From the IMG/VR virus record IMGVR_UViG_3300036985_006199, positions 1 to 57,972 of that record: a DNA stretch of 57,972 nt, one strand, 5' to 3'. Position 1 is the stretch's first letter; each line of letters opens with the position of its first letter. This DNA comes from a virus (lineage: Duplodnaviria; Caudoviricetes). Of the stretch, positions 1,375 through 22,589 are shown in pieces. The notes beneath the pieces are model-generated. The model was not told the DNA's origin and ran no database searches. It saw nothing but the letters and a program-made list of their open reading frames with translations. The translations under genes and the position numbers were made by a program.

Positions 1375-3741
1375 ATGGACATGAACGGAATCGACCTACT
1401 GGTTATCGCGGAGCGTTTGCGGGCGGCGGCTGCCGCGTTGGCGAAGGTTTGCGACGGCGCGAAGAAGCGGGACGACGTGGGGTTTTCCGCGTCGGATACC
1501 TCTTACGGGCGGGCCATCGCGGGCACCCCTGCGGACCAGTGGACCCGGCAGGACTGCATCGCGGTATCGGCTTTGCTGGGCCACTACCGGGGCCAGTTGA
1601 CGGCCTACGGGGTGGACTGGGCGGGGCTGCCCAACGTCACCGAGCAGGTGAACCGGGAGGCGTCCTTCAAGGCGTTCAAGGAGCGGGCCACGGAGGCGGC
1701 GCGTCAGCAACAGCGGATGGACTACGTGGACGGGCGCATTACGCGCGAGCAGGTGCGCGTGGTGGCCCCCTACCTGGCGTGGGTCGAGAAGCGCACGGTC
1801 TGCATCGAGAGCCCGCGCGACGAGGCGCTCATCGCGGCGATCAAGGCGTGCCCGAACGGGCGGCGCTGGAACGGGCTGGCGCGACGCTGGGAGGCGGAAC
1901 TGAGCCCGGCGAACGCCAAGGCGCTCCTGGCGATCTTCTCGCGGTTCAACTTCCTCGTGAGTGGCGCGGACCAGGCGATATTGGCGCAGGCGCAGGTTGC
2001 GACGGCTGCTGCGACGGTAGAACGTCCCAAGGCGGATCATGTGGTCATCGAGGGCGACCGGATCGTGTTGCGCACCCCGTACAACCAAGAGGCCACGGCG
2101 GCGCTCAAGGATGCGCTTCCAGGGCGACGTTGGGATGCAGCGAATAAGGTCTGGACGGCACCCTGTACGGCGGAGGCGGCGCGGGCTGTCCAGGCACTGG
2201 CCGAGCGGTGGGGCTGGCGTCTGGGGGCGGCTGCGGCGCGGCTGGCGGAGATCCGGGCGGAGGCTGAAACCTTCCGTGCGGCGAGCAAGGCGGCGGATGC
2301 AGAGTTGGAGTTGCGTGGGCTTCGAGATGGCGCGGTTCCGTACTCCTACCAGAAGGCGGGCGTTGCCTACGCCGTTGCAAAACGTCGCGTGCTGATCGCC
2401 GACGAGATGGGAATCGGGAAATCATTGCAGGCACTTATGACGGTCGTGCAACTGGACGCCTATCCGGCGTTGGTCGTTGCGCCCAAGGCTGTCTTGCGGC
2501 AATGGACACGTGAGGTTGGCAAGTTCCTCGAAGGTCGCACGGCGAGCATCGTTGGGCTCAAGGGGAACGCCAAGAGGCTGGCGCGGCATGGGTTGACGGC
2601 GGGCTTGTGCGGGGACTTCGTTATCGTCAATTACGACATTCTCGGGCGCAATCTGGAGGCGTTTAAGGCGCATGGGTTCAAAGCGCTCATCGTCGACGAG
2701 TCACATTTTATCAAAAACAAGAAGGCGGCGCGCAGCCAGGCAGTCAAGGACATGGCCAAGCAGCAGGGGTTGCAGGCGGTTCTGCTGCTCACGGGAACGC
2801 CGGTTTTGAATCGACCTGTTGAGTTGACACATCAGTTGGACGTACTTGGGCAGCTCCAGGGGTTCGGTGGGTTCATGACGTTTGCGAAGCGCTACGCGAA
2901 CGCCAAGGAAACCAAGTTCGGATGGGACATGACTGGGGCCAGCAACTTGGACGAACTTAATCGTCTCCTTCGCGAGCGCTGCATGGTTCGGCGCGAGAAG
3001 AAAGACGTGTTGGCGGACTTGCCAGCGATGCAGAGAACGGTCGTCCCGGTCGAGGTCGATGATCCAAAGGCGTATGAGCAGGCCATGAACGACATCGTGC
3101 GTTGGATGGCGGGCCAGCGTGGAGAGCTGCCCAGCGAGTCGGCGTACCGGGCGGAGATGCTGGTTCGGATCGAGGGGCTGCGGCAGTTGGCGGTTGCGGC
3201 GAAGTACGCGGCCACACGCGAGTGGCTGGCCAACTGGCTGGACACGGCGGAGGGAGAGAAGCTGGTTGTATTCGCGCATCACAGGGACGCCCAGGAGAAG
3301 CTTAAGGCCGATCTCGCCGACTACGGCGCGGTGTCGATCAGCGGCGGGGACAGCGACGACAACAGGGACGCGGCGGTCAAGCGGTTCTGGAACGACCCGA
3401 CTTGTCGCGTGATCGTCTGCTCGATCAAGGCGGCGTCGGTTGGACTCAACTTGCAATGCGCGAGCAACGTGGCGTTCGTCGAGTTTGCTTGGCACGCGGC
3501 AGACATGGACCAGGCGGAGGCGCGCTGCCACCGAATTGGCGTCCAAGGCGCGGTTACAGCCTACTGGATAGCTGGCGAGGACACTTTTGACGAGGACATG
3601 ATTGCGCTGATCGAGAGTAAGCGCGAGGTTGCCCACGCAGCGGTTAGCGGAGGCGAGATCGAGAAGCAGGCGAACGTCGTTGCCTGGTTTGAGAAGCTGA
3701 TCGAACGCAAGCGGACCAAGGAGGCGTGGGAGGGCAACTGA
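1375..3741 (+). CDS. SNF2-family (HARP/SMARCAL1-like) helicase/annealing ATPase
   Basis: Motifs YQ, ADEMGIGKS (Walker A), DESH (DExH), LTGTP, GLNLQ, QAEARCHRIG; two N-terminal HARP-like repeats (RRWNGLARRW, RRWDAANKVW). Confidence 0.9.
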   Translation: MDMNGIDLLVIAERLRAAAAALAKVCDGAKKRDDVGFSASDTSYGRAIAGTPADQWTRQDCIAVSALLGHYRGQLTAYGVDWAGLPNVTEQVNREASFKAFKERATEAARQQQRMDYVDGRITREQVRVVAPYLAWVEKRTVCIESPRDEALIAAIKACPNGRRWNGLARRWEAELSPANAKALLAIFSRFNFLVSGADQAILAQAQVATAAATVERPKADHVVIEGDRIVLRTPYNQEATAALKDALPGRRWDAANKVWTAPCTAEAARAVQALAERWGWRLGAAAARLAEIRAEAETFRAASKAADAELELRGLRDGAVPYSYQKAGVAYAVAKRRVLIADEMGIGKSLQALMTVVQLDAYPALVVAPKAVLRQWTREVGKFLEGRTASIVGLKGNAKRLARHGLTAGLCGDFVIVNYDILGRNLEAFKAHGFKALIVDESHFIKNKKAARSQAVKDMAKQQGLQAVLLLTGTPVLNRPVELTHQLDVLGQLQGFGGFMTFAKRYANAKETKFGWDMTGASNLDELNRLLRERCMVRREKKDVLADLPAMQRTVVPVEVDDPKAYEQAMNDIVRWMAGQRGELPSESAYRAEMLVRIEGLRQLAVAAKYAATREWLANWLDTAEGEKLVVFAHHRDAQEKLKADLADYGAVSISGGDSDDNRDAAVKRFWNDPTCRVIVCSIKAASVGLNLQCASNVAFVEFAWHAADMDQAEARCHRIGVQGAVTAYWIAGEDTFDEDMIALIESKREVAHAAVSGGEIEKQANVVAWFEKLIERKRTKEAWEGN

Positions 3742-3745
3742 CAGG

Positions 3746-3773
3746 TTGACAAACAGGGGCAAGACTGTAAGCT
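3746..3773 (+). promoter_or_regulatory. sigma70-type promoter for the RAMP gene/array
   Basis: TTGACA(AAC)-16 nt-TAAGCT, followed by a hairpin (3786-3803), the 20-bp palindrome (3809-3828) and a GGAGG RBS. Confidence 0.6.
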
Positions 3774-3839
3774 GGCGGCAGGATTGCGGCAGTAGATTGC
3801 CGCTTTGCACGCGAACCCGGGTTCGCGTCGGAGGACAAC

Positions 3840-4661
3840 ATGGCGAAGGAAGAGAAGTCGGGTGTGACCACGAAGTTCAAACCGTTCCTGGACATCAAGT
3901 ACCTGCGAGTGAGAATCCAGGGGTACGATCCGCTGATCGTGCATGCCTGGTCGAAGAAGGCGGTCTTGGAACTCCTGGGCAAGTCGATGAAGATCCCCAA
4001 GGGGGCGCGCGAGGAAAAGAACGCTGAGCAGGAGATGGAGGACGCCAAATACTACGACCGGGACGGCAACGAGGCCATTTTGGCGACGGCGGTCAAGAAG
4101 GCCATGATCTCGGCGATCAGCATGGTGAGCGACCTGAAGAAGACGCACATGCGACAGGCGTTCTTCGTCTGGGGTACAGTGGACAAGGAGCGCTCCGCGA
4201 TTTTGAATGCAGAAGACGGAACGCCCATGAAGGGCTTGATGCGCTTGGACCCCGTGCGGGTGGGAGGGCAGAAGGGGGCGAAGTCGGCGGACATCCGCTT
4301 TCGCCCGGAGTACCCGGAGTGGGCGGTGGACGTCGTGATTGAGTACAACGCGCTGGGGATTTCCAAAGAGCAGATCGTCAACTTGATCAACACGGCTGGA
4401 TACGGCGTGGGCATCTTCGAGTGGCGCCCGGAGAAGGATGGGACGTACGGGCGTTTCGAGGTGGCTGACGTTGAGGATCTGCCGGAGAAGCCGAAGTGGA
4501 CCAAGGCGTCGGGCTACCTGCGCAAGGGCGAGATGGACGCCAAGTCGGTGCTTGAGGCGTTGCAGATCCAGAAGGCCGTGGCTGCGAATGAGATGCTGAA
4601 GAAGAAGAGCAAGAAAAAGAAGGGCAAGAAGGCGGAAGACGTCGAGGAGGACGAGGCATAG
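3840..4661 (+). CDS. stand-alone Cas7/RAMP-like RNA-binding protein (Vipr-like)
   Basis: RAMP-like order of motifs: strand YLRVRIQGYDPLIVH, helix ILATAVKKAMISA, RFRPEYPEWAVDVVIEY, and a C-terminal glycine-rich loop AGYGVGIFEWRPEKDGTYGRFEV; basic/acidic tail; no other cas genes in the window. Confidence 0.7.
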   Translation: MAKEEKSGVTTKFKPFLDIKYLRVRIQGYDPLIVHAWSKKAVLELLGKSMKIPKGAREEKNAEQEMEDAKYYDRDGNEAILATAVKKAMISAISMVSDLKKTHMRQAFFVWGTVDKERSAILNAEDGTPMKGLMRLDPVRVGGQKGAKSADIRFRPEYPEWAVDVVIEYNALGISKEQIVNLINTAGYGVGIFEWRPEKDGTYGRFEVADVEDLPEKPKWTKASGYLRKGEMDAKSVLEALQIQKAVAANEMLKKKSKKKKGKKAEDVEEDEA

Positions 4662-4723
4662 GCCCGCGCCCTTCTTTCAACGGGCTTGGATCGCTACTCC
4701 TGGGAGGGCGGCGATCTGGGCCA

Positions 4724-5671
4724 GGCATGGCAGGAGAGGAATGGCAAGTTTTGGCGAGAATTGGCGGGGCATGGTTCGGCAGGAACGGCTGGGACTGGAT
4801 GGGTGAGGAGCGGCATGGTGCGGAAAGGCAGGAGAGGACTGGCAAGAATGGCGAGAATTGGCGGGGCCTGGCTCGGCAGGATCGGCTGGTCTTGGTATAG
4901 TTCGGTTGGGCGAGGCAACGTGAGGCAGGCAAGGAGGGGCTGGGTTCGGCCCGGTAAGGTTGGGCTGGCAGGGGCAGCGTGAGGCAGGCTTGGCATGGAT
5001 GGATTCGGCATGGGCGGAGAGGTCTGGAAGGGCAGGACTGGAGGGGCAAGGTCTGGACTGGCCAGTCTAGGTGCGGCCTGGCAGGAATGGCGGGGCTCGG
5101 TTCGGACGGATGTGCTTGGCAGGCGCGGCGAGGATGGGCTTGGCGCGGTCTGGTGACGTGTGGTTTGGCAAGGCAGGAGAGGTTGGTTCTGGAGTGGCTC
5201 GGCACGGCGTTGTACGACATGGCAAGGCAGGAGAGGTGAGGCAAGGCGCGGTAGGGACCGGCATGGTGTGGACGGGCACGGCAGGAACGGCTTGTCGGGG
5301 TTCGGTACGGTAGGGTGCGGCGAGGCTCGGATCGGCTGGAACGGCACGGTACGGTTGCGCAGGGACCGGAGCGGACGGGCAGGAAAGGCAAGGCGTGTTG
5401 AGGTCGGGACGGGCCTGGCGCGGATCGGCAGGCGGGGTTAGGACTGGCGGGGCTAGGTGAGTCCTGGATCGGATCGGCAGGTTGGGAGTGGGATGGATTG
5501 GCTTGTTGAGGCCGGGCTGGCGAGGCCAGGTGGGGCACGGTGGGAATGGGTTGGGCCTGTCAGGGCCGGTATGGCGGAGCATGGCGGCGCAGTCCGGGGC
5601 TGGGCAGGTCACGCCAAGGCAGGCGTGGCAAGGTCTGGCGGGGGGCCGCTCGGCATGGAACGGGACGGCGG
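4724..5671 (+). repeat. GGH-NN pentamer array in ~20 units (mostly GGCA + 7-11 pentamers); putative guide RNA array
   Basis: Units start at 4729, 4778, 4827, 4875, 4924, 4983, 5031, 5080, 5118, 5172, 5226, 5280, 5334, 5378, 5427, 5476, 5515, 5564, 5603, 5618; e.g. 5226 ggca ggaga ggtga ggcaa ggcgc ggtag ggacc ggcat ggtgt ggacg ggcac. Confidence 0.9.
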
Positions 5672-5710
5672 GTTCTCCGAAAATGGACCCGCAGAAAGGA
5701 TCTACAGCAC

Positions 5711-6172
5711 ATGAGAAGAAAATACCGGATCTGGGTCACCGTACAGTGGTTGACGCATGAAGAGGCGTGCGACACGTGCGGCGTGGAGTTCCTCGATCAA
5801 TGGGCCTTTGAAGACACCAACATCTACCCCCTCAGCACGGACGAGAACGGGGGCGACCCCCCGGATACCGATCCGCTCTGGGCGATGTCCTGCCACTGCG
5901 ATCATGACCTGCACGATGACACGTCCATGGAAGAGTTCTGTCGCGGGTTGGCCCATCACGTGTGGGCGATGACGGGTCGATGGGTGCCCGTCCTCATCCA
6001 GTGGTGCCGCATCGCCCCGGTGGACACCCTCTCGTTCGACCATGCAGACTTCGACGCGTTCGCGACCGAGGTGCATTCGGACCTGTTCCCATCCCGTGCC
6101 GAGGCGGTCGACGCCCTCGTCCAGTCCAGCCTCATCCTCCCCTCGGATGGATCCCCCAGCGGTTCCGCCTAG
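5711..6172 (+). CDS. hypothetical acidic His/Cys-rich protein
   Basis: ATG at 5711 after AAAGGA; the upstream part of ORF 5540 lies in the repeat array. Confidence 0.6.
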   Translation: MRRKYRIWVTVQWLTHEEACDTCGVEFLDQWAFEDTNIYPLSTDENGGDPPDTDPLWAMSCHCDHDLHDDTSMEEFCRGLAHHVWAMTGRWVPVLIQWCRIAPVDTLSFDHADFDAFATEVHSDLFPSRAEAVDALVQSSLILPSDGSPSGSA

Positions 6173-6183
6173 CCACCCTTCGC

Positions 6184-6213
6184 TTGACAAACGCACTCTG
6201 CCACGCATACCCT
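6184..6213 (+). promoter_or_regulatory. putative promoter (TTGACAAACGC motif)
   Basis: TTGACAAACGCA followed by a weak -10 (TACCCT, 18-nt spacer). Confidence 0.4.
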
Positions 6214-6262
6214 AGACGGCGTTGCCGCGATCTCCCCCTAGAGATCGACTAGATGACAAAGG

Positions 6263-7069
6263 TTGCCCGATGACCCGTATTCCGATGCACCTGTGCGCAA
6301 AGGTGTCACCCCCTGGTGCCCCATGAGCCGGGGGAACCCCTTCGAGAAAATCAAGAAGCTGCGCTGCCACCAGGAGGTCTACGAGCGTCTCTGCGCGGGC
6401 TATCCCTGCCCCGAGGTGGCCCGCTACATCCAGGAGGACGAGGGGGAATACCTCGACGTGGGGCGGCCCTCGCTGGTCGGCATGCTCCGGGACTACACCG
6501 AAAGCGAGATCGTGGGCGTCGACCTGATCGCACCAAGGCTCCCGCACGTTGTGGTCAAGGCGCAGAAGGAGTTCAGCGACCGGCTGGAAGACTTGCGCCG
6601 TCTGGAACGCGCCTACGAGGCGTTGCTGTACCGCTTCGACCTGTCCCATGGTGAAGAGCGTCGCAACGGCAAGGTCAATCCCGATGTAGACCGGCAGGCC
6701 AAGGTCTTGATGGATTACATCTCCAAGATGCACGACGTTAAGATGGATCTGGGGCTCACCGGATCTCGCGACTTGGGCACGCTGACGGTGAGTGCGGAGC
6801 GGTTGGCCGCGATCAAGGACAAGTATGGCGAGGGCGCGGCGCGGGCCTTTGGCGATCCGGTTTCCAGGGCCAAGGTCTTGGGTCTGTTGAGGCGCGTGAT
6901 GAAGATCTCGGAGCGCGGAGATGTCCTGGAGTCAGACCTGGAAGAGGCGAACCTGGGTTCGCGTGACGATTCCGAACAATACCCGGAAGCTATAGAGGCC
7001 GAATTTTCTGAGGCGACCACCCCGAAACCCGCATTAGGACCGACCGAAGAAGATTCGGAAGAGCGATGA
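6263..7069 (+). CDS. putative terminase small subunit
   Basis: Helical protein directly upstream of, and ATGA-coupled to, the large terminase; start uncertain (6263 TTG or 6323 ATG). Confidence 0.45.
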   Translation: MPDDPYSDAPVRKGVTPWCPMSRGNPFEKIKKLRCHQEVYERLCAGYPCPEVARYIQEDEGEYLDVGRPSLVGMLRDYTESEIVGVDLIAPRLPHVVVKAQKEFSDRLEDLRRLERAYEALLYRFDLSHGEERRNGKVNPDVDRQAKVLMDYISKMHDVKMDLGLTGSRDLGTLTVSAERLAAIKDKYGEGAARAFGDPVSRAKVLGLLRRVMKISERGDVLESDLEEANLGSRDDSEQYPEAIEAEFSEATTPKPALGPTEEDSEER

Positions 7070-10000
7070 TCGTCACCGCCTCCAACGGGCGTCGTCGGAG
7101 CGTCAGGACGGGCGGAGAGGACATCCGCGCCTTCAAGGAGGGGTACGCGCTGTGTACGCCCGAGGAGCGGTCTCTGATCCAGGCGCTACTGAACGAGGGT
7201 GATCCGAATTCGGCGGCGGTGTTGAGTGTGGAGCTGAACGAGTCCCTGTACCGTCGCCCATTGGTATCCATGCAGCAGTTCATTGAAGATCCCTACTACC
7301 TGGGTGACTCCATGGGGACGATGTACCCGGCGCTCAAGAAGGACGTTATCGCCCTATTTGAAGCTCCATACAGGGAAGTGGTGCTGTGCCTGCATCCAGA
7401 CACGCCGATACCGCTCTTGAATGGGATGATGCCGACGCTGCGTTCGTTGGCGGAGAAGTGGGCGCAGGACAAACAGGACTTCTGGATATATGGAGTCAAT
7501 CCAGATGGACATGTTCGTCCTGCGTTGGCCACTGAACCGCGTTGCACAGGGGAGGACGACTATTATCGAGTGACGCTAGATGACGGGTCGTTCTTTGTAT
7601 CCAACGCTCGGCACAGGATGGTGATGCGAGACGGAGGCAAGCGGCAGGTTATGGACATGGTGGCTGGCGACAGTCTGATGCCATTCCAGACAGTCATGTC
7701 CACCAAGGGACGCGGAAGGCGCATCGCTGGATATGAGATGGTCATGGATTTTGTCGACGAAGAAATGCGGTATACGCATGCTCTTGTAGCGGACCATGTG
7801 CATGGATCGGTCGATCCGTCCAAGGTGACGATCCACCATGTTGACTTCGACAAACGGAATAACGAACCAGACAACTTGTCCCTCATGCCATGGAGTGATC
7901 ACCAGCTTTTGCATGCGCGGACGCGCAGAGAATGGCTTGCCGTCGATTCGGAGAGTCGGACTGCGCTAGCTGAACGCCAGCGGGCCATATGCAAAGATCC
8001 ACATTCTCCACTGAGGATGGCCCATGCTGAATTTATGGCGTCTCCAGAAGGCAGGGCACTTTCTGCAAATAATTTGGCGAAGGCCATTATCACCATAGAT
8101 GACAGGCGCGAGAGAGGTGGCAGGGCTTCTGTTTGTCGTTGGAATGGGCCTGATGGAGAAGAGCATAGGGCCGCTGCTTCAGAGCGAATGCGTGTTCGGA
8201 ATTTGTCTGGCAATGCGGCGGAGGCAGGTCGGCTGTCGTTTTCTAATCGTTCACCAGAGGCTCAAGAACGCCAGCGTCAACGGGCATTATTGAATTCGAT
8301 GAGGCAGCGTCGTGATGACGTGAATCCATCCACTATACGAGAGGCTATTGATAGCGGGTCGTCCACGTTCAAAGCTGTGGCAAAGAAGCTTGGTTGCTCT
8401 CCATGGCGCGTTCGTTGTGCGATTGTGGAAGCAGGCTTGTCGCTCCGAGAGTTCTTCCCTCGCACGCGAAATCATTATGTTGTGTCCGTGGAGCCGTGTG
8501 GAAGAGGCCCCGTATACTGCATGACGGTTCCTGACACTGAGAACTTCGCAATAGCAACGAGGCGACCAGATGGGACCGTTGCGCGATCTGGTGTTTTCTC
8601 CAGCAACACCGGAAGTATCGGATCGGGCAAAACTTTCCTGGCGAGTGCGGCCATTTGCCGCATTTTGTACGAGCTGTCGTGCATGAAGAATCCCCAGTTG
8701 ACGTTTGGGATGTCGCCCGGCACCGAGATGGTGATCATGCTGATCTCCAAGAACCTCGTGTTGGCGCGGGAGGTGATGAAAACGAGCATTGATGACAAGA
8801 TCAAGCTGAGCCCGTACTTCATGCAGCACTTCACGCCTAAATTCTCGACAGACTACACCTTGTTTCCCAATAGCATCCGCATGAACATTGGGTCATATGG
8901 TGCTGAGCGCGCCCTTGGAGCGAATATTTTTTCAGCTTTTCTGGATGAGTGTTTAGGCAAGAAAAGCTTGTTAAGCATTGGTGAACATGGTAAAAGCGCA
9001 CAGTTTCCCGTTGGCGATCTGTGGGCAATGGGGCCTGCGGGGCGCGACGGGTTGCTGGTTGAAGCGCTGGACCATGCGACGGGTCAGCAGACGTGGACGC
9101 CGTTTAGGATGCGGCTGTCCACGGTGCAACCGTTGGTACGGATCGAGACGAACCTGGGTTCGTGTGTGCGGGCTATTGAACCGTCTCGGGAGCACCCCTT
9201 GCTGGTGCGGCGCGATGAATGGCTGATCTACGTCCCGGCGCGAGAGATTGTGGTTGGGGACGAGGTCGTCTGGAGGCGCGACGATGGCGAAGAAGGGCGA
9301 GACGTTGAGCGAGGAGCAGCGACAGAAGTTGTCGGAGGCCGCGAAGCAGCGGACAGGGGAACGCAATCCATTCTGGGGGAAGACGCACAGCGAGGAGACC
9401 AAGGCGCTGTATGCAGAGAATGCGCGGCAGCAGTGGACGGGGGTCAAGCAGAGCGAGGAGACAAAGGCCAAGCGGTCGGCTGCGTTAAAGGGGCGCGTGA
9501 TGTCAGCGGAGACGCGAGCCAAGATGGCGGCATCGGCCAAGGCGCGCTGCACGCCGGAGTGGCGGGCGCGGATGTCGGCGCAGACCACGGCGGATCGAGC
9601 GAGCGGGCGTGTGACGAACATGCCCCCTGTGTATCCGGCAGGGCCAGATCATCCGAACCGTGGACAGAAGCGGACGGAGGAACAGCGGCAGCGGATGCGC
9701 GAAGCGTTCCAGGATCGCCCTGGACATGCGCACAACGAGGAATCGCGGGGCAAGATCTCGGAGGGGAATGCGCAGGCGATCAAAGATCGAGTGCGGTCCT
9801 ACCGCTACCATGTGTCGTCGCCGGATGGAGGCTTGGTGCCTTGCCGGACGGAGAACGAGAGGCACCTGGCTCAACGGCTGTGCATGGAAAGCGGTGTGGT
9901 GCGCATTGTAGGCGAAGATCAGATGGAGTGGATGCCTTACGAGTTGGATGGAAAGAAAAGGATGACGATTGGCGACTTCTTAGTGATAAGGAGCGATGGC

Positions 10001-13000
10001 GTGCAAGTATTAGTGGAGGGGAAAGATTCGGCACATCTTTATCGAGACAGGGAACGTGCGCGCTTGGAAGCAGAATGGAAGTGGTGCCAGAAAAATGGGC
10101 ACTTGATGATCCTTGCGGTGAACGATCAGCGCATTCCGAGTGTATGGACGGGACCGTTTGTGACGGAGGAGTTCATGGAGAGCGTGCGGAAACATCGCGT
10201 GCGCTTTCGCACCATGTTGACGGTAGAACCCTCGGAGGCTGTCGCTCCGAGTGCTTGCGAGTCACCGACCTGTCCGACGCCTACCAGCTCGTCCGAGTAA
10301 CGGCCACGCGGGATCTTCCAGCCGAACAGACCTACAGCATAGAGACGGACTGCCAGACCTTCGTGGCGGACGGTTGCGTGGTCCACAACACGAACTTCCC
10401 TCCGAAGCGGAGTGCACAGCAGATCAATCAGACGTTTGGCAAACAGCTCACGGCGGCTAATTTCGACATCGTGGAGAAGGTCTACCGATCCATGGTGCGG
10501 CGGATCAAGTCGCGCTTCCAGACGGCAGGCGGCGACTTCCCGGGCATGGTCATCATGGTGTCGTCGGCGGCGACGTTGGACAGCTTCACCGAGCGTAAGA
10601 TTCGGGAGGCGCGTCAGGATCCAACGGTGTTTGTGCGGGATCATACGGCGTGGACATCGAAGCCCATGGACCACTTCTGTGGTAAGTGGTTCTACGTGCT
10701 GTGCTCGAAGTCCAGCCTCCGCTCGCGCATCCTCGAAGACGGGGAGTACGATGAGATCTCGCCTGAGTACCTTGAGGAAAACAATGCTTGGCTGATCGAG
10801 GTGCCGGTAGAATACAAGGAGGACTTCGAGAGCAACCTGGAAGACTCGTTGCGCGACATCGCGGGTGTTTCGACGCAGGCGATTTCGGCGTTCTTCCAGC
10901 GTGTGGATGCAATCGAGGCGTGCATTGTGCCGGGACGCAAGCATCCATTCTCTAGTGAGGTCTGGGTCTCTGGCTCACCGGCTACGTTCGATTGGGACTA
11001 TCTGTGCCGCCGGATCGAGCGGCGACTGCCTGGAGGGTTTACCGAGACCGCGTGGGCTCCAAAGGAGTCTCCTTCGAGTCCGCGTTGGATTCACATTGAC
11101 ACGTCAATCAGTGGAGATAGCACGGGATTTTGTTGTGGGCGTATAGACAGGTGGGTCGAGGTCGTGCGGCGGGATGGGGAGGGGCACGCCTATACCGATA
11201 CCGCACCATATTATGTCATTGAGGTGCTGCTTAGTATTAGACCGCCGTCGGGCGACCAGATCTACATGCCGGATCTGCGACGTCTTGTGTACGAGTTGCA
11301 GGCGCATGGCTTCCCAATCCACGGGTTTTCCAGTGACTCTTTTCAGTACGTCGAGATGCATCAACAGATCAGGCGGCACGGCATCCATACCGAGCTGATC
11401 TCCATGGATCGCACCATTGATCCTTACGAGGAGCTGAAGTCGGCTATTTACGAGAAGCGCATCGAATTCTACGAGTACACGAACCTGCTTCAGGAGTTGC
11501 GATCTTTGGAATATGATCGCGTGAAGGGTAAAATTGACCATCCTAGACATTCGAGTAAAGATTGCATCTCTGGGGACACCAGGATTTCCTTGCTGAACGG
11601 TAGTGAGGTCATGATCCGGGATCTCGTTGGGCAGGAATTCTGGGTGTACGCCTGCACACCGAACGGTACGGTGGTTCCAGCCCACGCTCATAATGTACAT
11701 CTGGTTGGAGACCGGGACGTGATGCGAATTTGGCTCGACAACGGGTCGCATTTGGATTGCACTCCAGACCATGAGATCATGATGCGCGATGGCGAGTTCC
11801 GGGAAGCTAAGTCCATATCGGTTGGAGATAGCCTCATGCCGTTGTATCGGGATGTTTCCGTGGCAAATCCAAAGCATGGTCTGGATGGGTATGAGAGAGT
11901 TCTTGATAACAAGACCGGACGGTATGTTTTTACGCACCAGTTGGTCGCCAATACGGTTGGTGGATTTGCATATGCGGGGAATAGGAAAGAGCGCCGAATC
12001 ATTCATCATGCCGATTTTAATAAGAGAAATAACGATCCGGCCAACCTTGTTCCCATGGAGTGGCATGAACATCTGCGCGTGCATCGAACCGTAGCGTCTC
12101 AGAATATGAAACGGCTGTGGGAGGATGACGAGTATCGGAAGAAGGCATGTCTACGCAGTGGGAAGATCGGAAGGGTAACCGGGCCGATCAACATGACACG
12201 GTACAACAGGTCTCAGGAACGCATCGAGAAACTTCAGGCCAAGGGGACATTCGCGGCAAATGGAAAGAAGGTCATGCAGCAGTTGTGGGCGGACCCTGAA
12301 TATCGACGCCGACATCGTCAGCGCGTGTCTGGATCTGGCAACCATTGGGCGAGGAAAGATGTGACGATGGATCGCATATTGACCGTTGCTGCGAGCGTCA
12401 CGAGCCAGGTTGATCTGTTGCGAGAGTTACGGTGTACCCAGAAGGTATTGGCGCGAGTCTTGTTGGAGAACGGGATGTCTTGCCGGGACTTGGCGGTGAA
12501 ATTTGGTCATCATCGCCATCGTGGCAGCGCGGCTTATCAGTTTCGACATGACGTTACATTTGACCGTGTTCTGGAGACTGCGAAGACGGTGTCCACCGTC
12601 CAGGAACTGTGCGCTACCATGAAATGTACTCCAAAGGTGTATCACCGCGTGATCCAATCACAGGGATGGACAGCAGCGAAATTCAAGGGCGCACATTTCA
12701 AAAAGTCGCAGACTAACCATCAGGTGGTGCGCGTGGAAATGCTTGGGGCGGTCCCTGTGTATGATATGACGGTGGACGTTCATCATAACTTCGCCATCTC
12801 CGCTGGCATGTTTGTCCACAACTGCTCTGATGCCCTGGCCGGGACGATCTGGGGACTGCGGCAACAGGCCGCTCGCTTGCCGTGGGCTGCTGATGCTGAT
12901 ACACCAAGAGTAGCGGTCGGTCATGATCATGGCTGGGTGAGCGACATGATCCCAGCCGAGGACGTGGATCTGGACGAGGTACGCGCGGCACGCTCGGCTC

Positions 13001-13044
13001 AGTCTGCCCACGTTCTGATGCCCTTCTTCATAGGAGATGACTGA
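7066..13044 (+). CDS. terL: terminase large subunit precursor with three inteins (mature ~685 aa)
   Basis: Spliced exteins give VVL|TGSIGSGKT (Walker A), FLDE|T (Walker B), IHIDTSISGDSTG and KIDHPRHSSKD|CSDA (RNase H-like nuclease). Confidence 0.92.
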   Translation: MIVTASNGRRRSVRTGGEDIRAFKEGYALCTPEERSLIQALLNEGDPNSAAVLSVELNESLYRRPLVSMQQFIEDPYYLGDSMGTMYPALKKDVIALFEAPYREVVLCLHPDTPIPLLNGMMPTLRSLAEKWAQDKQDFWIYGVNPDGHVRPALATEPRCTGEDDYYRVTLDDGSFFVSNARHRMVMRDGGKRQVMDMVAGDSLMPFQTVMSTKGRGRRIAGYEMVMDFVDEEMRYTHALVADHVHGSVDPSKVTIHHVDFDKRNNEPDNLSLMPWSDHQLLHARTRREWLAVDSESRTALAERQRAICKDPHSPLRMAHAEFMASPEGRALSANNLAKAIITIDDRRERGGRASVCRWNGPDGEEHRAAASERMRVRNLSGNAAEAGRLSFSNRSPEAQERQRQRALLNSMRQRRDDVNPSTIREAIDSGSSTFKAVAKKLGCSPWRVRCAIVEAGLSLREFFPRTRNHYVVSVEPCGRGPVYCMTVPDTENFAIATRRPDGTVARSGVFSSNTGSIGSGKTFLASAAICRILYELSCMKNPQLTFGMSPGTEMVIMLISKNLVLAREVMKTSIDDKIKLSPYFMQHFTPKFSTDYTLFPNSIRMNIGSYGAERALGANIFSAFLDECLGKKSLLSIGEHGKSAQFPVGDLWAMGPAGRDGLLVEALDHATGQQTWTPFRMRLSTVQPLVRIETNLGSCVRAIEPSREHPLLVRRDEWLIYVPAREIVVGDEVVWRRDDGEEGRDVERGAATEVVGGREAADRGTQSILGEDAQRGDQGAVCRECAAAVDGGQAERGDKGQAVGCVKGARDVSGDASQDGGIGQGALHAGVAGADVGADHGGSSERACDEHAPCVSGRARSSEPWTEADGGTAAADARSVPGSPWTCAQRGIAGQDLGGECAGDQRSSAVLPLPCVVAGWRLGALPDGEREAPGSTAVHGKRCGAHCRRRSDGVDALRVGWKEKDDDWRLLSDKERWRASISGGERFGTSLSRQGTCALGSRMEVVPEKWALDDPCGERSAHSECMDGTVCDGGVHGERAETSRALSHHVDGRTLGGCRSECLRVTDLSDAYQLVRVTATRDLPAEQTYSIETDCQTFVADGCVVHNTNFPPKRSAQQINQTFGKQLTAANFDIVEKVYRSMVRRIKSRFQTAGGDFPGMVIMVSSAATLDSFTERKIREARQDPTVFVRDHTAWTSKPMDHFCGKWFYVLCSKSSLRSRILEDGEYDEISPEYLEENNAWLIEVPVEYKEDFESNLEDSLRDIAGVSTQAISAFFQRVDAIEACIVPGRKHPFSSEVWVSGSPATFDWDYLCRRIERRLPGGFTETAWAPKESPSSPRWIHIDTSISGDSTGFCCGRIDRWVEVVRRDGEGHAYTDTAPYYVIEVLLSIRPPSGDQIYMPDLRRLVYELQAHGFPIHGFSSDSFQYVEMHQQIRRHGIHTELISMDRTIDPYEELKSAIYEKRIEFYEYTNLLQELRSLEYDRVKGKIDHPRHSSKDCISGDTRISLLNGSEVMIRDLVGQEFWVYACTPNGTVVPAHAHNVHLVGDRDVMRIWLDNGSHLDCTPDHEIMMRDGEFREAKSISVGDSLMPLYRDVSVANPKHGLDGYERVLDNKTGRYVFTHQLVANTVGGFAYAGNRKERRIIHHADFNKRNNDPANLVPMEWHEHLRVHRTVASQNMKRLWEDDEYRKKACLRSGKIGRVTGPINMTRYNRSQERIEKLQAKGTFAANGKKVMQQLWADPEYRRRHRQRVSGSGNHWARKDVTMDRILTVAASVTSQVDLLRELRCTQKVLARVLLENGMSCRDLAVKFGHHRHRGSAAYQFRHDVTFDRVLETAKTVSTVQELCATMKCTPKVYHRVIQSQGWTAAKFKGAHFKKSQTNHQVVRVEMLGAVPVYDMTVDVHHNFAISAGMFVHNCSDALAGTIWGLRQQAARLPWAADADTPRVAVGHDHGWVSDMIPAEDVDLDEVRAARSAQSAHVLMPFFIGDD
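7387..8607 (+). mobile_element. intein 1 in TerL (407 aa, HNH endonuclease)
   Basis: Starts CLHPDT, ends GVFSSN|T; HNH motif IHHVDFDKRNNEPDNL; inserted just before Walker A. Confidence 0.88.
8950..10389 (+). mobile_element. intein 2 in TerL (480 aa) containing a nested out-of-frame endonuclease gene
   Basis: Starts CLGKKS, block B SREHPLL, ends FVADGCVVHN|T; inserted after Walker B DE. Confidence 0.85.
9284..10300 (+). CDS. NUMOD3-repeat, TnsA-like PD-(D/E)XK homing endonuclease nested in the +1 frame of intein 2
   Basis: GGAGG at 9272 then ATG 9284; NUMOD3-like repeats (NPFWGKTHSEETK, KQSEETKAKRS, HNEESRGKISE); nuclease-like MPYELDGKKRMTIGDFLV...LVEGK. Confidence 0.8.
   Translation: MAKKGETLSEEQRQKLSEAAKQRTGERNPFWGKTHSEETKALYAENARQQWTGVKQSEETKAKRSAALKGRVMSAETRAKMAASAKARCTPEWRARMSAQTTADRASGRVTNMPPVYPAGPDHPNRGQKRTEEQRQRMREAFQDRPGHAHNEESRGKISEGNAQAIKDRVRSYRYHVSSPDGGLVPCRTENERHLAQRLCMESGVVRIVGEDQMEWMPYELDGKKRMTIGDFLVIRSDGVQVLVEGKDSAHLYRDRERARLEAEWKWCQKNGHLMILAVNDQRIPSVWTGPFVTEEFMESVRKHRVRFRTMLTVEPSEAVAPSACESPTCPTPTSSSE
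11563..12822 (+). mobile_element. intein 3 in TerL (420 aa, HNH endonuclease)
   Basis: Starts CISGDT, block B CTPDH, HNH IHHADFNKRNNDPANL, ends HNFAISAGMFVHN|C. Confidence 0.9.
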
Positions 13045-13046
13045 AC

Positions 13047-16000
13047 ATGGGCTGGATGGACACCGTCAAGAAGTTCTTCAGCCGCGACACCACGGGCAAG
13101 GTCACTGAACTGGCCCGGGGGTCTTCTGGCGAATCGTCTATGCCGAACATGGTGCCAAGCGCGCCAGACTCCGGCATGGGCGGAGCATACCAACAGCTTG
13201 CGACGATGCTCTCGGTCGACGCGGACCTCATGCTCCGCTATGCCGACTACGAGAACATGGACGACTACCCGGAGATCAGCGCGGCGCTGGACATCTACGC
13301 CGACGACGCGACGATCACGGACGCCGTGCATGGGCGGGTGATCTGGGGCACCTCGAAGGACAAGATTGTCCGGGACATCGTCAATGACTTGCTGCATCGC
13401 CGCATCCGCATCGAAGAGGACATCTGGGCGGCCGTTCGCACCATGGGTCAGTACGGAAATTTGTACTGTTTGCCTGCTGGATCTCGGGTGTGGACTGACC
13501 AGGGGCCGCGCGCTATCGAGACAATCGAAGCAGGCGCCATGGTCCAGGGGTACAAGGAAGGGGAAAAGGTCTTTTTGCCAGTAGCGAGGCGGTTGGACAA
13601 CGGGGTGCGCGAGATCTTCCGAGTGCGCACTCGGCATCGGGAGTTTTTTGCGACAGCAGACCACCCTGTGCTGGTTGACTGCGGCAATGGTGTCACGGAG
13701 TGGGTGCAAGTCGGTGATCTGAGGGTCGTGCGTTATGAGCCGAGTCCTGGTCGGAATACAGGCAGTATAAATTATGCCAAGACGCACAAATTGGTGATTG
13801 CCACCTCGTGTCATGAGGCAGCGGAAGCCCCGCTGTGCCGAGATCTGTTCGTTGCCGACGTGCATCCCAAGGAGCGAGAGATCGGCGGAAACGTGACCAA
13901 CGATTTCTGCGCCCCTGATCGGATGGATCCGTGGCTGTGTCGTCTCCTCGGGTTCATGTATGGGGATGGCGGACTAGCTACCGAGAGAATGGACGTGAGC
14001 AACAGCACGGTGTGGCTCTGTCGCAAGGAATACGAGGACCGCAACGAATACTACGAGGGGTTGTTGCGGCGCTTGCATCTCGAACCGAATCCGAATGAGG
14101 ACGGGACACTGACACTCGTTCATTCCATCCTATTCAAGTGCTTCTTGCTGTCGCTCGGCTGGAAGAACGGATCGGGAAAGAAGCGACTCCCGCTGTGGCT
14201 GGGTAGTTTACCACGAGAGCATCGGTTGGCGTTCCTGGATGGGTTCATGGATGCAGATGGATGGACGACCGATCCGCCAACATGGACGGGGTCGGCATAT
14301 CACTTTGAGATCAGCAATATCGAGTTGGCGCGAGATCTGAAGTGCCTGATCGATGGACTTGGGTTCCGCTCTGGGAACCTACGGTTCAGGACGCGCGAAG
14401 CACCGATTATCAACGGAAAACAGGTTCAGTCTGTGCAAGAGTCAGCGATGCTGACGTTCTCACGGCATGAGTTTGGTGGGGACTTTGTGTCGGAGACTCT
14501 TCTCGAAGTTGAGCCTGCCGGACAAGCACAGGTCTACGATCTGGAAATCGCGGACGATGCACATAATTTCGTGGCGGAAGGTGTCGTTGTTCACAACTGC
14601 GAGATCGTGATGAACGAGACCGGCGTGCTGGGTCTCAACTGGCTGCCCCCGCCGACCATGCGGCGCATCATCGACGTGCGCGGCAGCCTTGTCGGGTTCG
14701 TGCAAGATCCGTCCGGCATGTTCTCCTTCAACATTGCGACGCGGGAGGATCTGGAGAAGCTGCGCGAGAAGCGCGACGGCAGCACGGCGACCTTCTTCTA
14801 CCCCTGGGAGGTGGCGCACTGGCGCCTGCGGGGCAAGCAGATGCGGGCGCTGTACGGCTACTCCCTGCTGGACTCGGCCCGGTGGATCTGGAAGCGCCTT
14901 GTGATGCTGGAGGACAGCAGCCTGGTCTGCAAGCTGTGCCTGCATGGTGACACGTTGGTATGGACTCCGGGTGGAGCTACGAAGATCCGGGACGTTGAAG
15001 AGGGAGATGAGGTGCTTTCCTACGCTCCTGGTGGTGCGTTGATCAAAACACGTGTGACATATAAGAAACACAACGGGACGGATAGGTTGTTCCGGGTGTC
15101 AAGCAAGCATAGGGATATTGTCGCTAACGCGACCCACCCGGTGCTCGTTGAGTGGTCTGTTGGGAATGGAAGTGGACGACCGAAGACGAGGTTCCAGGAA
15201 TACGTAGAGGTTCAAAACATAAAGCCAGGAGAGCATATGTTTGTGACGCCGTCTGTCGAGGACGGGGTGTGCGACTACGTTCCGTTGGTGATGCCTGAAG
15301 TTGGGCAAAAAGCACGACTGATGCCGTCTGTTGCGTCTTCGCCTGCTGTTGAGATGAAGTTTGGGGCGGGACGTCTCGGTCAACGGTGCGGGGTTCGGTC
15401 TCCGCTGGTGAAGGAGTTCTTCGATGGCGAGTACGAGATCAATCTAGGGGCGGCGATTCGATTGCTTCGAGAGAATGGTACATCTCTGGATGTGTTGGAT
15501 GTGAGAGATGACTGGGGCGGAGCCGTTCCGAATATTCCCAATGTTGCCAACGAGGATTTCGCGCGTTGGTTTGGATTCATGATTGGAGATGGCTGGGCAT
15601 CGGAGCGCCCGTTCTCGAAGGGTGAGAAGAAATATTTTGTGCGCGAGATCGGTTTTGCCGCTGGCGTGGACGACGAGATCAATAAGAAATATCTTGCATT
15701 GTTTGAGCGGTTCTTTGGCCCGGCGCGGTTCAACAAGGATAGCAAGTCGACGCACGATCACGTTGGGGCATTCGTCATTTCTTCAAAGGTGGCGGTTGAG
15801 TTCATGTGCCTCAACGGATTTTCCACGGGTGCCCACAACAAGCGAGTTCCACAGTGGGTATTTGAGTCTCCGTTATCTGTGCGGCTTGCCTTCTTGGAGG
15901 GGCTTGCTGATGCGGACGGTCACATACGTGAGATGAGCGTTGGGGAGAATCATGCAAAGGTACGTTTCAAGCGAGTGACGCTGGAGATGTGCAACCATGG

Positions 16001-17186
16001 GCTTCTTGAAGATGTCCGGTTGCTCTGCATGCAGATTGGTTTAGTAGTGGGACATGTGAATTCTCGTGTGAGGGTGGGTGGTCGCACTATCTCTGGCAAT
16101 GACAATCCCTTGCCGGAGACGGTGTCGCACTCGTTTTCATATTCATTTGATCGCATGCCTTTGAGCGAGGATATCGAGAAGGTCGAAGAGGTCGCAGCGG
16201 ACGACATTTGGGATATCGGTGTAGTTGCGGAGGAGCACAACTTTGTGGCGAACGGTGTGGTTGTGCATAACACCAAGGCCCCGGCGCGCTTCGCCTTCTA
16301 CGTGGATACCGGCGAGATGCCGCCACGTGAGGCCAAGGCCATGGTGGAGGAGGTCCGCCGCCGCTACAAGAAGAAGCGGATCGTGGACCCGGCTACTGGA
16401 AAGCTAGACTTTCGATTTAATCCGCTCGAAAATAGTGAAGATTTCTTTATACCTACGCGGGCTGGGAAGGAAGCCTCGCGGGTGGAGGTCATTGCTGGCC
16501 CTGACTACGACGACACCAATGTGCTCGGCTACTTCCTGAAGAAGCTGTACGCGGCCATCCGCATCCCGCCGCAGTACCTGGGCGGCACCGAGGTGACGAA
16601 CCGGGCCGCGCTGACCCAGGAGGACGTGCAGTTCGCCCGGCTGGAGATGCGCCTCCAGAGCGAGTTCACGGGCGGTCTGTTGCAAGTGGTGCGCGTGCAT
16701 CTGGCCGCGCTGAACATCGATCCTGATTCGGTGAAGTGGGATCTGCGGATGTCCGCGCCGAGCAGCATCTTCGAGATGCAGCAGATCGAGGTTTGGAACG
16801 CGCGGGTGGCGTTGGCGGTGGGCCTGCGCGATTTCTTTACGATCCCGTGGATCATCGCAAACATCTTCCACATGTCGGATGAGGACGCGCTGTTTGCGAC
16901 CGAGGCGAAGCGCAACGAGGACGAGTCCACGGCCATGGCGCAGGCGCAGGTACAGGCGGACATCATGCAGCGGTTCCCGGAGCTGAGCCCCATGGCGGGG
17001 ATGCTCAGTGGGGCAGAGGGGGAGCAGCCCCCGCCGGGGGCGACTGAGGATGTGCGACGTGAGATCCGCCGGGTGATGGCCGAGACATCCGGGGGGCAGA
17101 ACGAGGTGTTGCGGCGACTCGCCCGGATCGAGCCCGCCATTTCCCGGGTCGAGCGGCGCGTGCGCACGGCTCGCACCGGGTCATGA
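13047..17186 (+). CDS. portal protein (T4 gp20-like) precursor with two inteins (mature ~557 aa)
   Basis: gp20-like motifs YENMDDYPEISAALDIYADD, YGYSLLDSAR, L..LEDS....L|TKAPARFAFYVDTG, EDFFIPTR; position after terL. Confidence 0.9.
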   Translation: MGWMDTVKKFFSRDTTGKVTELARGSSGESSMPNMVPSAPDSGMGGAYQQLATMLSVDADLMLRYADYENMDDYPEISAALDIYADDATITDAVHGRVIWGTSKDKIVRDIVNDLLHRRIRIEEDIWAAVRTMGQYGNLYCLPAGSRVWTDQGPRAIETIEAGAMVQGYKEGEKVFLPVARRLDNGVREIFRVRTRHREFFATADHPVLVDCGNGVTEWVQVGDLRVVRYEPSPGRNTGSINYAKTHKLVIATSCHEAAEAPLCRDLFVADVHPKEREIGGNVTNDFCAPDRMDPWLCRLLGFMYGDGGLATERMDVSNSTVWLCRKEYEDRNEYYEGLLRRLHLEPNPNEDGTLTLVHSILFKCFLLSLGWKNGSGKKRLPLWLGSLPREHRLAFLDGFMDADGWTTDPPTWTGSAYHFEISNIELARDLKCLIDGLGFRSGNLRFRTREAPIINGKQVQSVQESAMLTFSRHEFGGDFVSETLLEVEPAGQAQVYDLEIADDAHNFVAEGVVVHNCEIVMNETGVLGLNWLPPPTMRRIIDVRGSLVGFVQDPSGMFSFNIATREDLEKLREKRDGSTATFFYPWEVAHWRLRGKQMRALYGYSLLDSARWIWKRLVMLEDSSLVCKLCLHGDTLVWTPGGATKIRDVEEGDEVLSYAPGGALIKTRVTYKKHNGTDRLFRVSSKHRDIVANATHPVLVEWSVGNGSGRPKTRFQEYVEVQNIKPGEHMFVTPSVEDGVCDYVPLVMPEVGQKARLMPSVASSPAVEMKFGAGRLGQRCGVRSPLVKEFFDGEYEINLGAAIRLLRENGTSLDVLDVRDDWGGAVPNIPNVANEDFARWFGFMIGDGWASERPFSKGEKKYFVREIGFAAGVDDEINKKYLALFERFFGPARFNKDSKSTHDHVGAFVISSKVAVEFMCLNGFSTGAHNKRVPQWVFESPLSVRLAFLEGLADADGHIREMSVGENHAKVRFKRVTLEMCNHGLLEDVRLLCMQIGLVVGHVNSRVRVGGRTISGNDNPLPETVSHSFSYSFDRMPLSEDIEKVEEVAADDIWDIGVVAEEHNFVANGVVVHNTKAPARFAFYVDTGEMPPREAKAMVEEVRRRYKKKRIVDPATGKLDFRFNPLENSEDFFIPTRAGKEASRVEVIAGPDYDDTNVLGYFLKKLYAAIRIPPQYLGGTEVTNRAALTQEDVQFARLEMRLQSEFTGGLLQVVRVHLAALNIDPDSVKWDLRMSAPSSIFEMQQIEVWNARVALAVGLRDFFTIPWIIANIFHMSDEDALFATEAKRNEDESTAMAQAQVQADIMQRFPELSPMAGMLSGAEGEQPPPGATEDVRREIRRVMAETSGGQNEVLRRLARIEPAISRVERRVRTARTGS
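13467..14597 (+). mobile_element. portal intein A (377 aa, LAGLIDADG)
   Basis: CLPAGS...ATADHP...LLGFMYGDG...FLDGFMDADG...HNFVAEGVVVHN|C. Confidence 0.9.
14937..16271 (+). mobile_element. portal intein B (445 aa, LAGLIDADG)
   Basis: CLHGDT...NATHP...WFGFMIGDG...FLEGLADADG...HNFVANGVVVHN|T. Confidence 0.9.
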
Positions 17187-22472: not shown

Positions 22473-22553
22473 TAGAAAACCACTAACATTTTGATATGTT
22501 ATGCGCTTGGTTACGCTGGGCGCAACCTCACTTTTAGCTGCGTCCGTTTCCAT

Positions 22554-22583
22554 TTGACACTGAGCTGGCATTGGTCATACCAT
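22554..22583 (+). promoter_or_regulatory. promoter of the endonuclease gene downstream of the capsid gene
   Basis: TTGACA-18 nt-TACCAT; ATG 22590 follows after a 6-nt gap. Confidence 0.5.
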
Positions 22584-22589
22584 TGCCAA

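Follow-up and report, generated by a model that had tools for sequence, protein, structure and literature searches.

The large terminase subunit (TerL) gene of an uncultured T4-like phage, carried by the IMG/VR record IMGVR_UViG_3300036985_006199, is interrupted by three inteins, the second of which very probably represents a mini-intein whose central slot, normally the place of an in-frame endonuclease domain, holds an entire gene for a free-standing type of endonuclease in the +1 frame relative to TerL. This high level of confidence applies to the explanation as a whole, including the homing model set out below; the anatomy of the element itself is confirmed. The analyzed stretch, referred to here as the window, is the whole 57,972-base record, for which completeness is estimated at about 31%. 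The coordinates of the features are collected in Table 1.

Intein 2 starts with Cys, ends with His-Asn and is followed by Thr in the extein, and the sequence on both sides of its central part is predicted by AlphaFold2 to fold into the two halves of a HINT domain. A Foldseek search with these halves against the Protein Data Bank (PDB) returned 22 matches at E ≤0.001, the best of which are inteins, e.g. the RadA intein 2lqm (E 5e-6), with all the matches listed being either inteins or hedgehog HINT domains. The residues C1, S79-x-x-H82 and H479-N480 are unchanged in 9/9 aligned inteins, C1 is seen in all 12 alleles with the N-terminus covered (L029 is cut at the 5′ end), and the extein residue after the intein is Thr in 10/10 occupied alleles listed. 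In the textbook block B motif (Thr/Ser-x-x-His), Thr occupies the position of Ser79. The insertion point lies right after the Walker B hhhhDE motif, and 13 empty alleles read ...DE/TNF... (the slash marks the insertion point). With the first Cys, the block B S-x-x-H, the C-terminal His-Asn followed by Thr, the HINT fold and the exact empty alleles all present, intein 2 is assigned to class 1 as a mini-intein with about 159 residues of HINT fold, and it is predicted to be active in splicing. The 321 residues between the two halves, the shadow linker, are predicted to have no secondary structure, and no Pfam or PHROG family was matched by the TerL-frame reading of the nested region, with the exception of the splicing ends. 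An initial annotation of the window, made from its letters, had described an intein with normal splicing ends at 8950-10389 and a low-information center, and both descriptions proved to be correct.

The same annotation had pointed to a GGAGG motif, an ATG at 9284 and a 338-codon open reading frame (ORF) ending at 10300 and coding for a NUMOD3 and TnsA-like nuclease; the profile searches it had suggested left these coordinates and both Pfam identities standing. The match to Tn7_TnsA-like_N (Pfam PF08722) has an E-value of 2.3e-6 and a score of 28.5 bits with the curated cut-off being 26.5, and the residues E192, D231, E245 and K247 forming the E...D...ExK pattern are unchanged in 12/12 aligned nucleases. 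In the AlphaFold2 model obtained with a 12-sequence alignment, the catalytic domain has a predicted local distance difference test (pLDDT) score of about 87-95, and the tail (residues 319-338) scores below 50 and is unstructured. The top Foldseek matches of the catalytic domain are the TnsA structures 1t0f and 1f1z (E 5e-6 to 4e-5), while a profile search of solved structures by sequence yielded nothing beyond a weak resemblance of the NUMOD3 part to 1i3j, the DNA-binding domain of I-TevI (E 0.019). TnsA (PDB 1f1z, 1t0f) is therefore the closest solved fold and has the same E...D...ExK pattern. Unlike in TnsA, only the N-terminal nuclease domain and no C-terminal domain is found by Pfam, and NUMOD3 repeats make up the N-terminus, an arrangement shared with homing endonucleases of the I-TevI type. 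Among the ORFs looked at, in what was not a dedicated search, no genes for the partners TnsB and TnsC stood out. The window nuclease shares the TnsA fold and is not a TnsA.

Public gene callers also predict the nuclease, with protein P0004 being 96% identical and proteins P0005-P0012 being 45-53% identical to that of the window. The nuclease domain family is rare, a search of 1.84 billion cluster representatives having returned no more than 12 matches at E ≤1e-10. More distant relatives possess the same C-terminal TnsA-like domain behind other DNA-binding N-termini and may be free-standing. None of the 185,579 species genomes scanned contained a confirmed relative of the nuclease, a result that is uninformative about the host. 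With an active site that is conserved and under selection, and a host element that is present or absent among similar alleles, the protein is a putative homing endonuclease, predicted to cleave the empty allele at a specific site.

The arrangement is not peculiar to the window. A search with the extein led to 18 viral loci, and a search with the nuclease led to 7 metagenome and 12 viral loci, all of which (7/7 and 12/12) show the same nesting. Some of the locus numbers denote the same contigs (L023 and L045 are L001, L034 is L017, L035 is L028, L039 is L031, L041 is L032, and L043 is L033), and duplicates were dropped from the pooled counts, namely L027, which is 99.8% identical to L001, and L040 and L042, which are identical to L037. 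This gives 13 distinct occupied alleles with nucleases 41-68% identical to that of the window and with a GC content of the nested gene from 38 to 67%. In all 13 the nuclease gene is intact and in the same phase and the intein occupies the same terminase site. A GGAGG- or GAGG-type motif precedes the ATG in all 14 nuclease ORFs of these 13 alleles, ending 6-7 nucleotides (nt) before it in nine aligned loci.

The relatives differ mainly in length: the number of NUMOD3 repeats varies, and the proteins range from 216 to 805 amino acids (aa). The longest nested ORF, that of L037 (identical to L040 and L042; positions 2602-5019), has 805 codons coding for three tandem nuclease domains, and no TerL-frame stop is seen in it where about 43 are expected; L001 (4001-5434) has two nuclease domains. 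The growth of both ORFs is a tandem duplication of the whole catalytic domain, of which the first copy alone keeps the D...ExK residues. At the other extreme, L024 is a 190-aa mini-intein in which the ribosome-binding site, the ATG and a 47-codon remnant are kept. The length of its deletion is a multiple of three, and both HINT halves stay in frame.

Selection on the two frames was compared by the ratio of nonsynonymous to synonymous substitution rates (dN/dS), as the initial annotation had also suggested, for eight pairs of alleles over the shared region with the last 45 codons left out; the pair L001/L027 has too few changes and is not counted. The nuclease frame has dN/dS values of 0.21-0.29 (five of the seven pairs, those with unsaturated dS) and the TerL frame has values of 1.25-2.3 (all seven pairs). 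The differences pile up at the third codon position of the nuclease, and the amino-acid identity is 49-70% in the nuclease frame against 18-48% in the TerL frame (six pairs, without L001/L027 and L030/L032). The nuclease frame is under purifying selection, and there is none at the protein level on the shadow linker. This modifies the claim of about 1 kb of dual coding made in the initial annotation: both frames are indeed open, but double coding of function is restricted to the ends. At the start, the ribosome-binding site falls within the codons for the final strand of the N-terminal HINT half, and at the other end the first 52 nt of the C-terminal half overlap the nuclease tail and its stop codon. 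Over the remaining roughly 960 nt the TerL frame need only stay open.

One more observation concerns the 96%-identical variant (run X3, P0004). Out of 23 substitutions in the nuclease ORF, 14 fall within 64 nt (9411-9474) in the second NUMOD3 repeat; these are mostly protein-changing, and the patch resembles recombination between repeats or alleles and not scattered point mutation.

The open state of the TerL frame is itself maintained by selection and not by chance. The TerL and nuclease frames are both stop-free over 9284-10297, as had been noted initially, with 16 stops in the third forward frame. When the nuclease codons were shuffled, a stop-free TerL frame was obtained in 0/20,000 cases, and when synonymous codons were redrawn from the usage of the ORF itself, the result was again 0/20,000 with a mean of 9.6 stops. 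In this phase a TerL-frame stop can arise only from a T-ending nuclease codon placed before a codon starting with AA, AG or GA, so such codon pairs are barred: T-ending codons occur at 0/91 of these risky places and at 46/246 elsewhere (Fisher p 1.7e-7). In control genes of the same phage (terminase, inteins 1 and 3, portal, helicase), 7-22% of the codons at risky places are T-ending; the low values of the capsid gene (1/115) and the sheath gene (6/196) are due to T-ending codons being hardly used there at all.

The same holds for the family. The 14 nuclease ORFs (13 distinct alleles) have no TerL-frame stops, with the expected means being from 3.0 to 43.1, and in 11 of the 14 (10 of the 13 alleles) 0/2000 resamples are stop-free. 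Pooled over the 13 alleles, T-ending codons are found at 0/1429 risky places and at 733/3560 places elsewhere. The initial suggestion that selection keeps the TerL frame open is thus borne out both by these counts and by the frame-specific dN/dS. No dipeptide of the nucleases forces a host-frame stop in the +1 phase, compared with 0-4 in the other phase. Since every NNT codon has an NNC synonym, every host-frame stop of the +1 phase can be removed silently, and as this T-to-C choice is always possible, the constraint costs the nuclease no amino-acid change.

Table 1 Features of the TerL gene, its second intein and the nested nuclease gene (positions are those of the window)
Feature	Position	Strand	Basis or remarks
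Intein 2, 480 aa in the TerL frame, between Walker B ...FLDE and TNFPP	8950..10389	+	Sequence, alignment
N-terminal HINT half, intein residues 1-112	8950..9285	+	AlphaFold2 pLDDT 84-94, all beta
Shadow linker, TerL frame, intein residues 113-433 (321 residues)	9286..10248	+	pLDDT 24-31, no secondary structure
C-terminal HINT half, intein residues 434-480	10249..10389	+	AlphaFold2 pLDDT 85-94
GGAGG ribosome-binding site, 7 nt 5′ of the ATG	9272..9276	+	Within the codons for the final N-half strand (V-W-R-R in the TerL frame)
Nested gene, 338-aa putative homing endonuclease	9284..10300 (ATG 9284, stop 10298-10300)	+	+1 ORF, Pfam, dN/dS
NUMOD3-type DNA-binding repeats, nuclease residues ~5-105	9296..9598	+	Pfam NUMOD3 E 3.5e-19
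TnsA-like PD-(D/E)xK catalytic domain, nuclease residues ~170-311	9791..10216	+	E192, D231, E245, K247
Extein tract 5′ of the insertion point, with the Walker B codons; predicted to be the target of the nuclease or a tract of co-conversion	8920..8949	+	Silent-difference patch
TerL ORF, 1992 aa, three inteins inside	7066..13044	+	ORF list; PHROG terminase large subunit matches
Intein 1, 407 aa, Walker A/P-loop region, in-frame HNH endonuclease	7387..8607	+	Pfam HNH_3, TerL residues 235-280
Intein 3, 420 aa, in-frame HNH endonuclease	11563..12822	+	Pfam Intein_splicing E 1.7e-22; PHROG HNH, residues 1605-1680

The distribution of the element is patchy. Among the alleles ascertained through the extein, 4 are occupied and 14 are empty, which requires at least 3 gains or losses on the extein tree; a recount of presence and absence with L016 treated as unknown (the locus starts inside the C-extein) gives 5 changes. 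The nearest extein relative of the window, L009 (96% identical), is empty, and so are L018, L019 and L025, which are near-identical to the occupied L017. A contig from run X2 joins position 8933 to position 10390 via 16 bases matching the L009-type empty allele, and it coexists with occupied-allele contigs (depths 2.72 and 3.8); runs X2 and X7 span the region in pieces only.

In two independent pairs of an occupied and an empty allele, silent differences are concentrated in the 30-50 nt of extein sequence just upstream of the insertion point. The window and L009 have 8 mismatches in the 300 nt upstream, 6 of which are in the last 30 nt, at the third positions of six consecutive codons, and L017 and L018 have 7 of their 10 mismatches in the last 30 nt. 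Such a silent patch hints at a short co-conversion tract or at recoding of the target site. Separately, the Glu codon before the insertion (8947-8949) is GAA in 13/13 empty alleles and GAG in 7/10 occupied alleles listed; the rows are largely near-copies, so relatedness may explain the difference, or it could mark a base relevant to cleavage, and no conclusion is drawn from it.

The tree of the HINT halves and the tree of the nucleases show the same three clades, and the two components have therefore traveled together. Locus L028 groups with the L031 clade by its extein (support 100/99) and with the clade of the window by its intein and nuclease, and the approximately unbiased (AU) test rejects the alternative (p 0.00087), a hint of one transfer between lineages.

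A number of results have to be set against the reading of intein 2 as a mobile mini-intein with an expressed nested nuclease gene. Empty alleles also vary in the upstream tract, where L010 and L012 differ at 9-10 positions in each of the two 30-nt bins closest to the insertion point, and the silent patches could be ordinary polymorphism. The extein tree and the intein and nuclease trees agree except for L028, so the spread could be largely vertical descent with loss; in addition, L028 has a long branch, and the group used in the AU test was chosen with knowledge of an earlier extein tree. With regard to the open TerL frame, genes with very few T-ending codons, such as that of the capsid, approach an open offset-2 frame without selection, and the open frame by itself carries little weight for the short GC-rich ORFs of L030, L032 and L033, which are expected to contain only 3.0-4.6 stops, with 17-70 of 2000 resamples being stop-free (70, 17 and 63 of 2000 in the three ORFs). 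Domains two and three of L037 have no ExK motif, the second domain of L001 has lost the catalytic D and K, and L024 has lost the nuclease gene, so some copies are decaying. As for expression, nine loci aligned over the ribosome-binding site of the nuclease form no meaningful consensus hairpin (-1.59 kcal/mol), and a search of the nested gene gave no sigma-70-like promoters and one minus-strand terminator-like site, which is the level of shuffled sequences. The T4 late-promoter motif TATAAATA has no matches in the window.

The out-of-frame position of the nuclease might in principle have been produced by two compensating assembly or sequencing indels shifting an in-frame endonuclease domain out of frame, given that the window is a single metagenome-assembled record, only about 31% complete, and that the run in which its sequence is found identically may be its own source. 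However, the whole of 8900-10450 is covered by a contig of a different study (run X3), which shows 32 substitutions and no gaps, keeps both frames open and encodes the nuclease P0004; pieces from a third study (X7) have no gaps either, and the same phase is found in 13 distinct alleles from different assemblies, each having its own ribosome-binding motif, ATG and stop. The 0/1429 T-ending codons at risky places are moreover a signature of long-term selection. An artefact can accordingly be given next to no weight: the comparison of contigs from independent assemblies disclosed no compensating indels of the kind considered in the initial annotation, and its placement of the gene out of frame inside the intein stands. 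It had also offered an unrecognized self-splicing intron as an alternative. Removal at the RNA level, by an intron of group I or II that houses a gene for a homing endonuclease, with the HINT-like ends being irrelevant, would suit NUMOD3 endonucleases, which are typical of group I introns and free-standing genes, and many distant NUMOD3 matches are named "group I intron endonuclease" by their sources. Against this, a cmscan search of 8700-10600 with Rfam at E ≤1 gave four chance-level matches (E 0.1-0.95) and no intron family, and an excised RNA needs no open host frame, yet the frame is open in 13/13 alleles. Furthermore, the flanks fold as a complete HINT domain with all the splicing residues, the deletion derivative L024 retains both HINT halves in frame, and the empty alleles join exactly at the intein borders. 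The intron was accordingly abandoned as an explanation that is very hard to credit.

The two other rivals accept the nested frame and differ in how it is expressed or maintained. A programmed +1 frameshift could make a fusion of the N-extein, the N-terminal HINT half and the nuclease with no internal start; the start of the nested gene does coincide with the end of the N-terminal HINT half, the search of the gene for promoter-like sites was negative, and TerL ribosomes pass over its start. Nevertheless, all 13 alleles have an ATG with a GGAGG- or GAGG-type motif before it despite the 38-67% GC divergence, there is no conserved structure at the site (the consensus energy of -1.59 kcal/mol mentioned above), and L032 and L033 have a stop in the nuclease frame one codon upstream of the ATG. 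All this makes a frameshift quite improbable. Somewhat less improbable, though still unlikely, is that the nuclease has ceased to home and is decaying as a passenger, with selection acting on the open TerL frame alone. The second and third nuclease domains of L001 and L037 lack catalytic residues, the gene is gone in L024, the intein and nuclease trees are mostly congruent with the extein tree, and 14 of the 23 nuclease-ORF substitutions between the window and its 96%-identical variant alter the nuclease protein, all of which would fit a passenger. On the other hand, the nuclease frame has kept a dN/dS of 0.21-0.29 over a long divergence, the four catalytic residues are unchanged in 12/12 proteins, and the ORF is intact in 13/13 alleles though a stop in it would be harmless to the terminase; the presence of the element also varies between near-identical exteins and within one sample.

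Under the preferred reading, that of a mini-intein holding a nested homing endonuclease gene, TerL ribosomes would read through the nested gene and produce the 321-residue unstructured linker, after which the HINT halves would come together as one fold and excise the intein, so that the Walker B ...LDE becomes joined to TNF.... Other ribosomes would initiate internally at GGAGG-N7-ATG (9284) to make the 338-aa nuclease, a step to which the translation signals and the purifying selection on this frame point. In a mixed infection the nuclease would be expected to cut intein-free terminase alleles near the Walker B codons, and repair from the occupied allele would copy the intein and the nuclease as one unit, that is, homing would take place. 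This last step is inferred from the patchy distribution, the coexisting alleles and the flank patches. Since the terminase gene is essential and any TerL-frame stop would inactivate it, the risky T-ending nuclease codons are avoided. With regard to its origin, it is plausible that a free-standing endonuclease invaded a mini-intein. A further, tentative suggestion, to which we would give slightly less than even weight, is that the two frames form a stable and old partnership, perhaps enabled by the +1 phase, and not a brief stage before a split intein or an in-frame domain arises. A single ancestral pairing of a mini-intein with a PD-(D/E)xK/NUMOD3 endonuclease of the free-standing type would then have persisted as a unit through three clades and from 38 to 67% GC. 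The same suggestion, and no more firmly held, entails at least one move between terminase lineages and needs splicing across a linker of more than 800 residues.

Nested endonuclease genes of this kind have been described before. In 2025 Gosselin, Arsenault and Gogarten (bioRxiv 10.1101/2025.01.02.630785) described non-canonical inteins of actinobacteriophages whose endonuclease is encoded in a different frame or on the opposite strand, the families being endonuclease VII-like in "frame 3" of the same strand, and antisense LAGLIDADG and Vsr-like. Like intein 2, these have an intact splicing domain in the host frame, an out-of-frame endonuclease between the splicing blocks and a structureless host-frame slot; many cases are in the large terminase, and the authors likewise propose that a free-standing endonuclease invaded an intein. 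Unlike there, the nuclease described here is NUMOD3 plus TnsA-like PD-(D/E)xK in frame 2 (+1), which is outside the families reported there, and the hosts are uncultured T4-like phages of sediments and not actinophages. Stop-avoidance statistics, tandemly expanded nuclease ORFs and a wide GC range were not found in the passages of that preprint that were consulted. A cyanobacterial dnaX intein with an out-of-frame LAGLIDADG endonuclease was described in 2026 by Phillips, DeSimone and Gogarten (bioRxiv 10.64898/2026.09.14.751524). It resembles intein 2 in the disordered host-frame middle, the confidently folded endonuclease in an overlapping ORF with Shine-Dalgarno motifs before the start, the low dN/dS of the endonuclease frame and raised dN/dS of the host frame, the coexistence of occupied and empty alleles and the proposed secondary invasion of a mini-intein. 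The dnaX case involves a cellular host gene, LAGLIDADG and a "+2" ORF, whereas here there is a phage terminase, PD-(D/E)xK and the +1 frame.

Two other systems share part of the architecture. In the ShiLan HNH insertion, an endonuclease gene is likewise nested out of frame with the host frame open and has a disjunct distribution suggesting homing; the ShiLan element is without a splicing domain and the insert stays in the host protein, whereas complete HINT brackets are present here and removal by splicing is expected. Fractured genes (Dassa et al. 2009, PMC2677866) contain split inteins whose halves flank a free-standing gene for a GIY-YIG or Vsr-like endonuclease, and the 3′ end of the endonuclease gene overlaps the downstream intein half by 6-69 bp there and by 52 nt here. 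NUMOD modules are mentioned by Dassa et al. for the GIY-YIG type. In fractured genes the host gene is in two ORFs and splicing occurs in trans, in contrast to the continuous host frame in 13/13 alleles and the other nuclease family found here. In the literature searched, a TnsA-like or NUMOD3 nuclease in an intein was not found reported, a provisional result as subscription journals and supplements were outside the search. The architecture is rare but was already known from the reports of 2025-2026, and the present case departs from them in its type of nuclease, in its phase, in the group of phages involved and in how deep and how extreme its conservation is.

The assignment of the window to T4-like phages is based on the Gp23-type capsid protein, the Gp20-type portal, the S77 prohead protease and the tail sheath encoded in it. 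The four separate extein pieces of TerL align end to end with intein-free relatives, which is how the presence of three inteins was established. Intein 1, which is missing from L001 and L009-L015, serves as the canonical in-frame counterpart for comparison with intein 2. L001 is without inteins 1 and 3 of the window and has an extra HNH intein at a fourth site (...SISGD/C...HN/STGF; L001 6250-7530), which is empty in the window, and L009-L011 and L021 have no terminase inteins; the terminase is thus a mosaic of intein sites that are independent of one another. The portal gene (13047-17186; Gp20-type, 1379 aa) is apparently also interrupted by inteins, with Pfam Intein_splicing, Hint_2 and LAGLIDADG_3 matches inside. 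Taken together with the terminase inteins, this makes the packaging genes unusually intein-rich, with at least 4 or 5 inteins in two adjacent genes.

Two regions outside the packaging genes are also worth mentioning. The ORF adjoining the capsid gene (22491-24227) matches the Mom protein family and a GNAT acetyltransferase domain, which suggests a DNA-modification function. A GC-rich stretch is located 5′ of the small-terminase-like gene both in the window (5540-6250) and in L001 (1-1620). Both of its strands hold long ORFs that overlap one another in several frames and have translations rich in Gly, Arg and Trp. Tandem Repeats Finder detected only two short arrays in the window between 3800 and 6400, around this stretch.

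How inteins acquired their homing endonucleases is a long-standing question. If the tentative reading of an old partnership between the two frames is true, the family would provide a natural series for testing this acquisition, comprising the empty site, the full element, the element with duplicated domains and the mini-intein. The model in which splicing came first and the endonuclease invaded later predicts a free-standing gene inside a still-contiguous intein, and the family supplies such an intermediate, in empty, full, expanded and reduced states and with a measurable selection signature on a frame that is merely open. Gene callers will either overlook the nested gene or wrongly label the intein as decayed. 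Should splicing be confirmed, the HINT domains of this family would splice across 300-800 unstructured residues, which would also be of interest for protein engineering.

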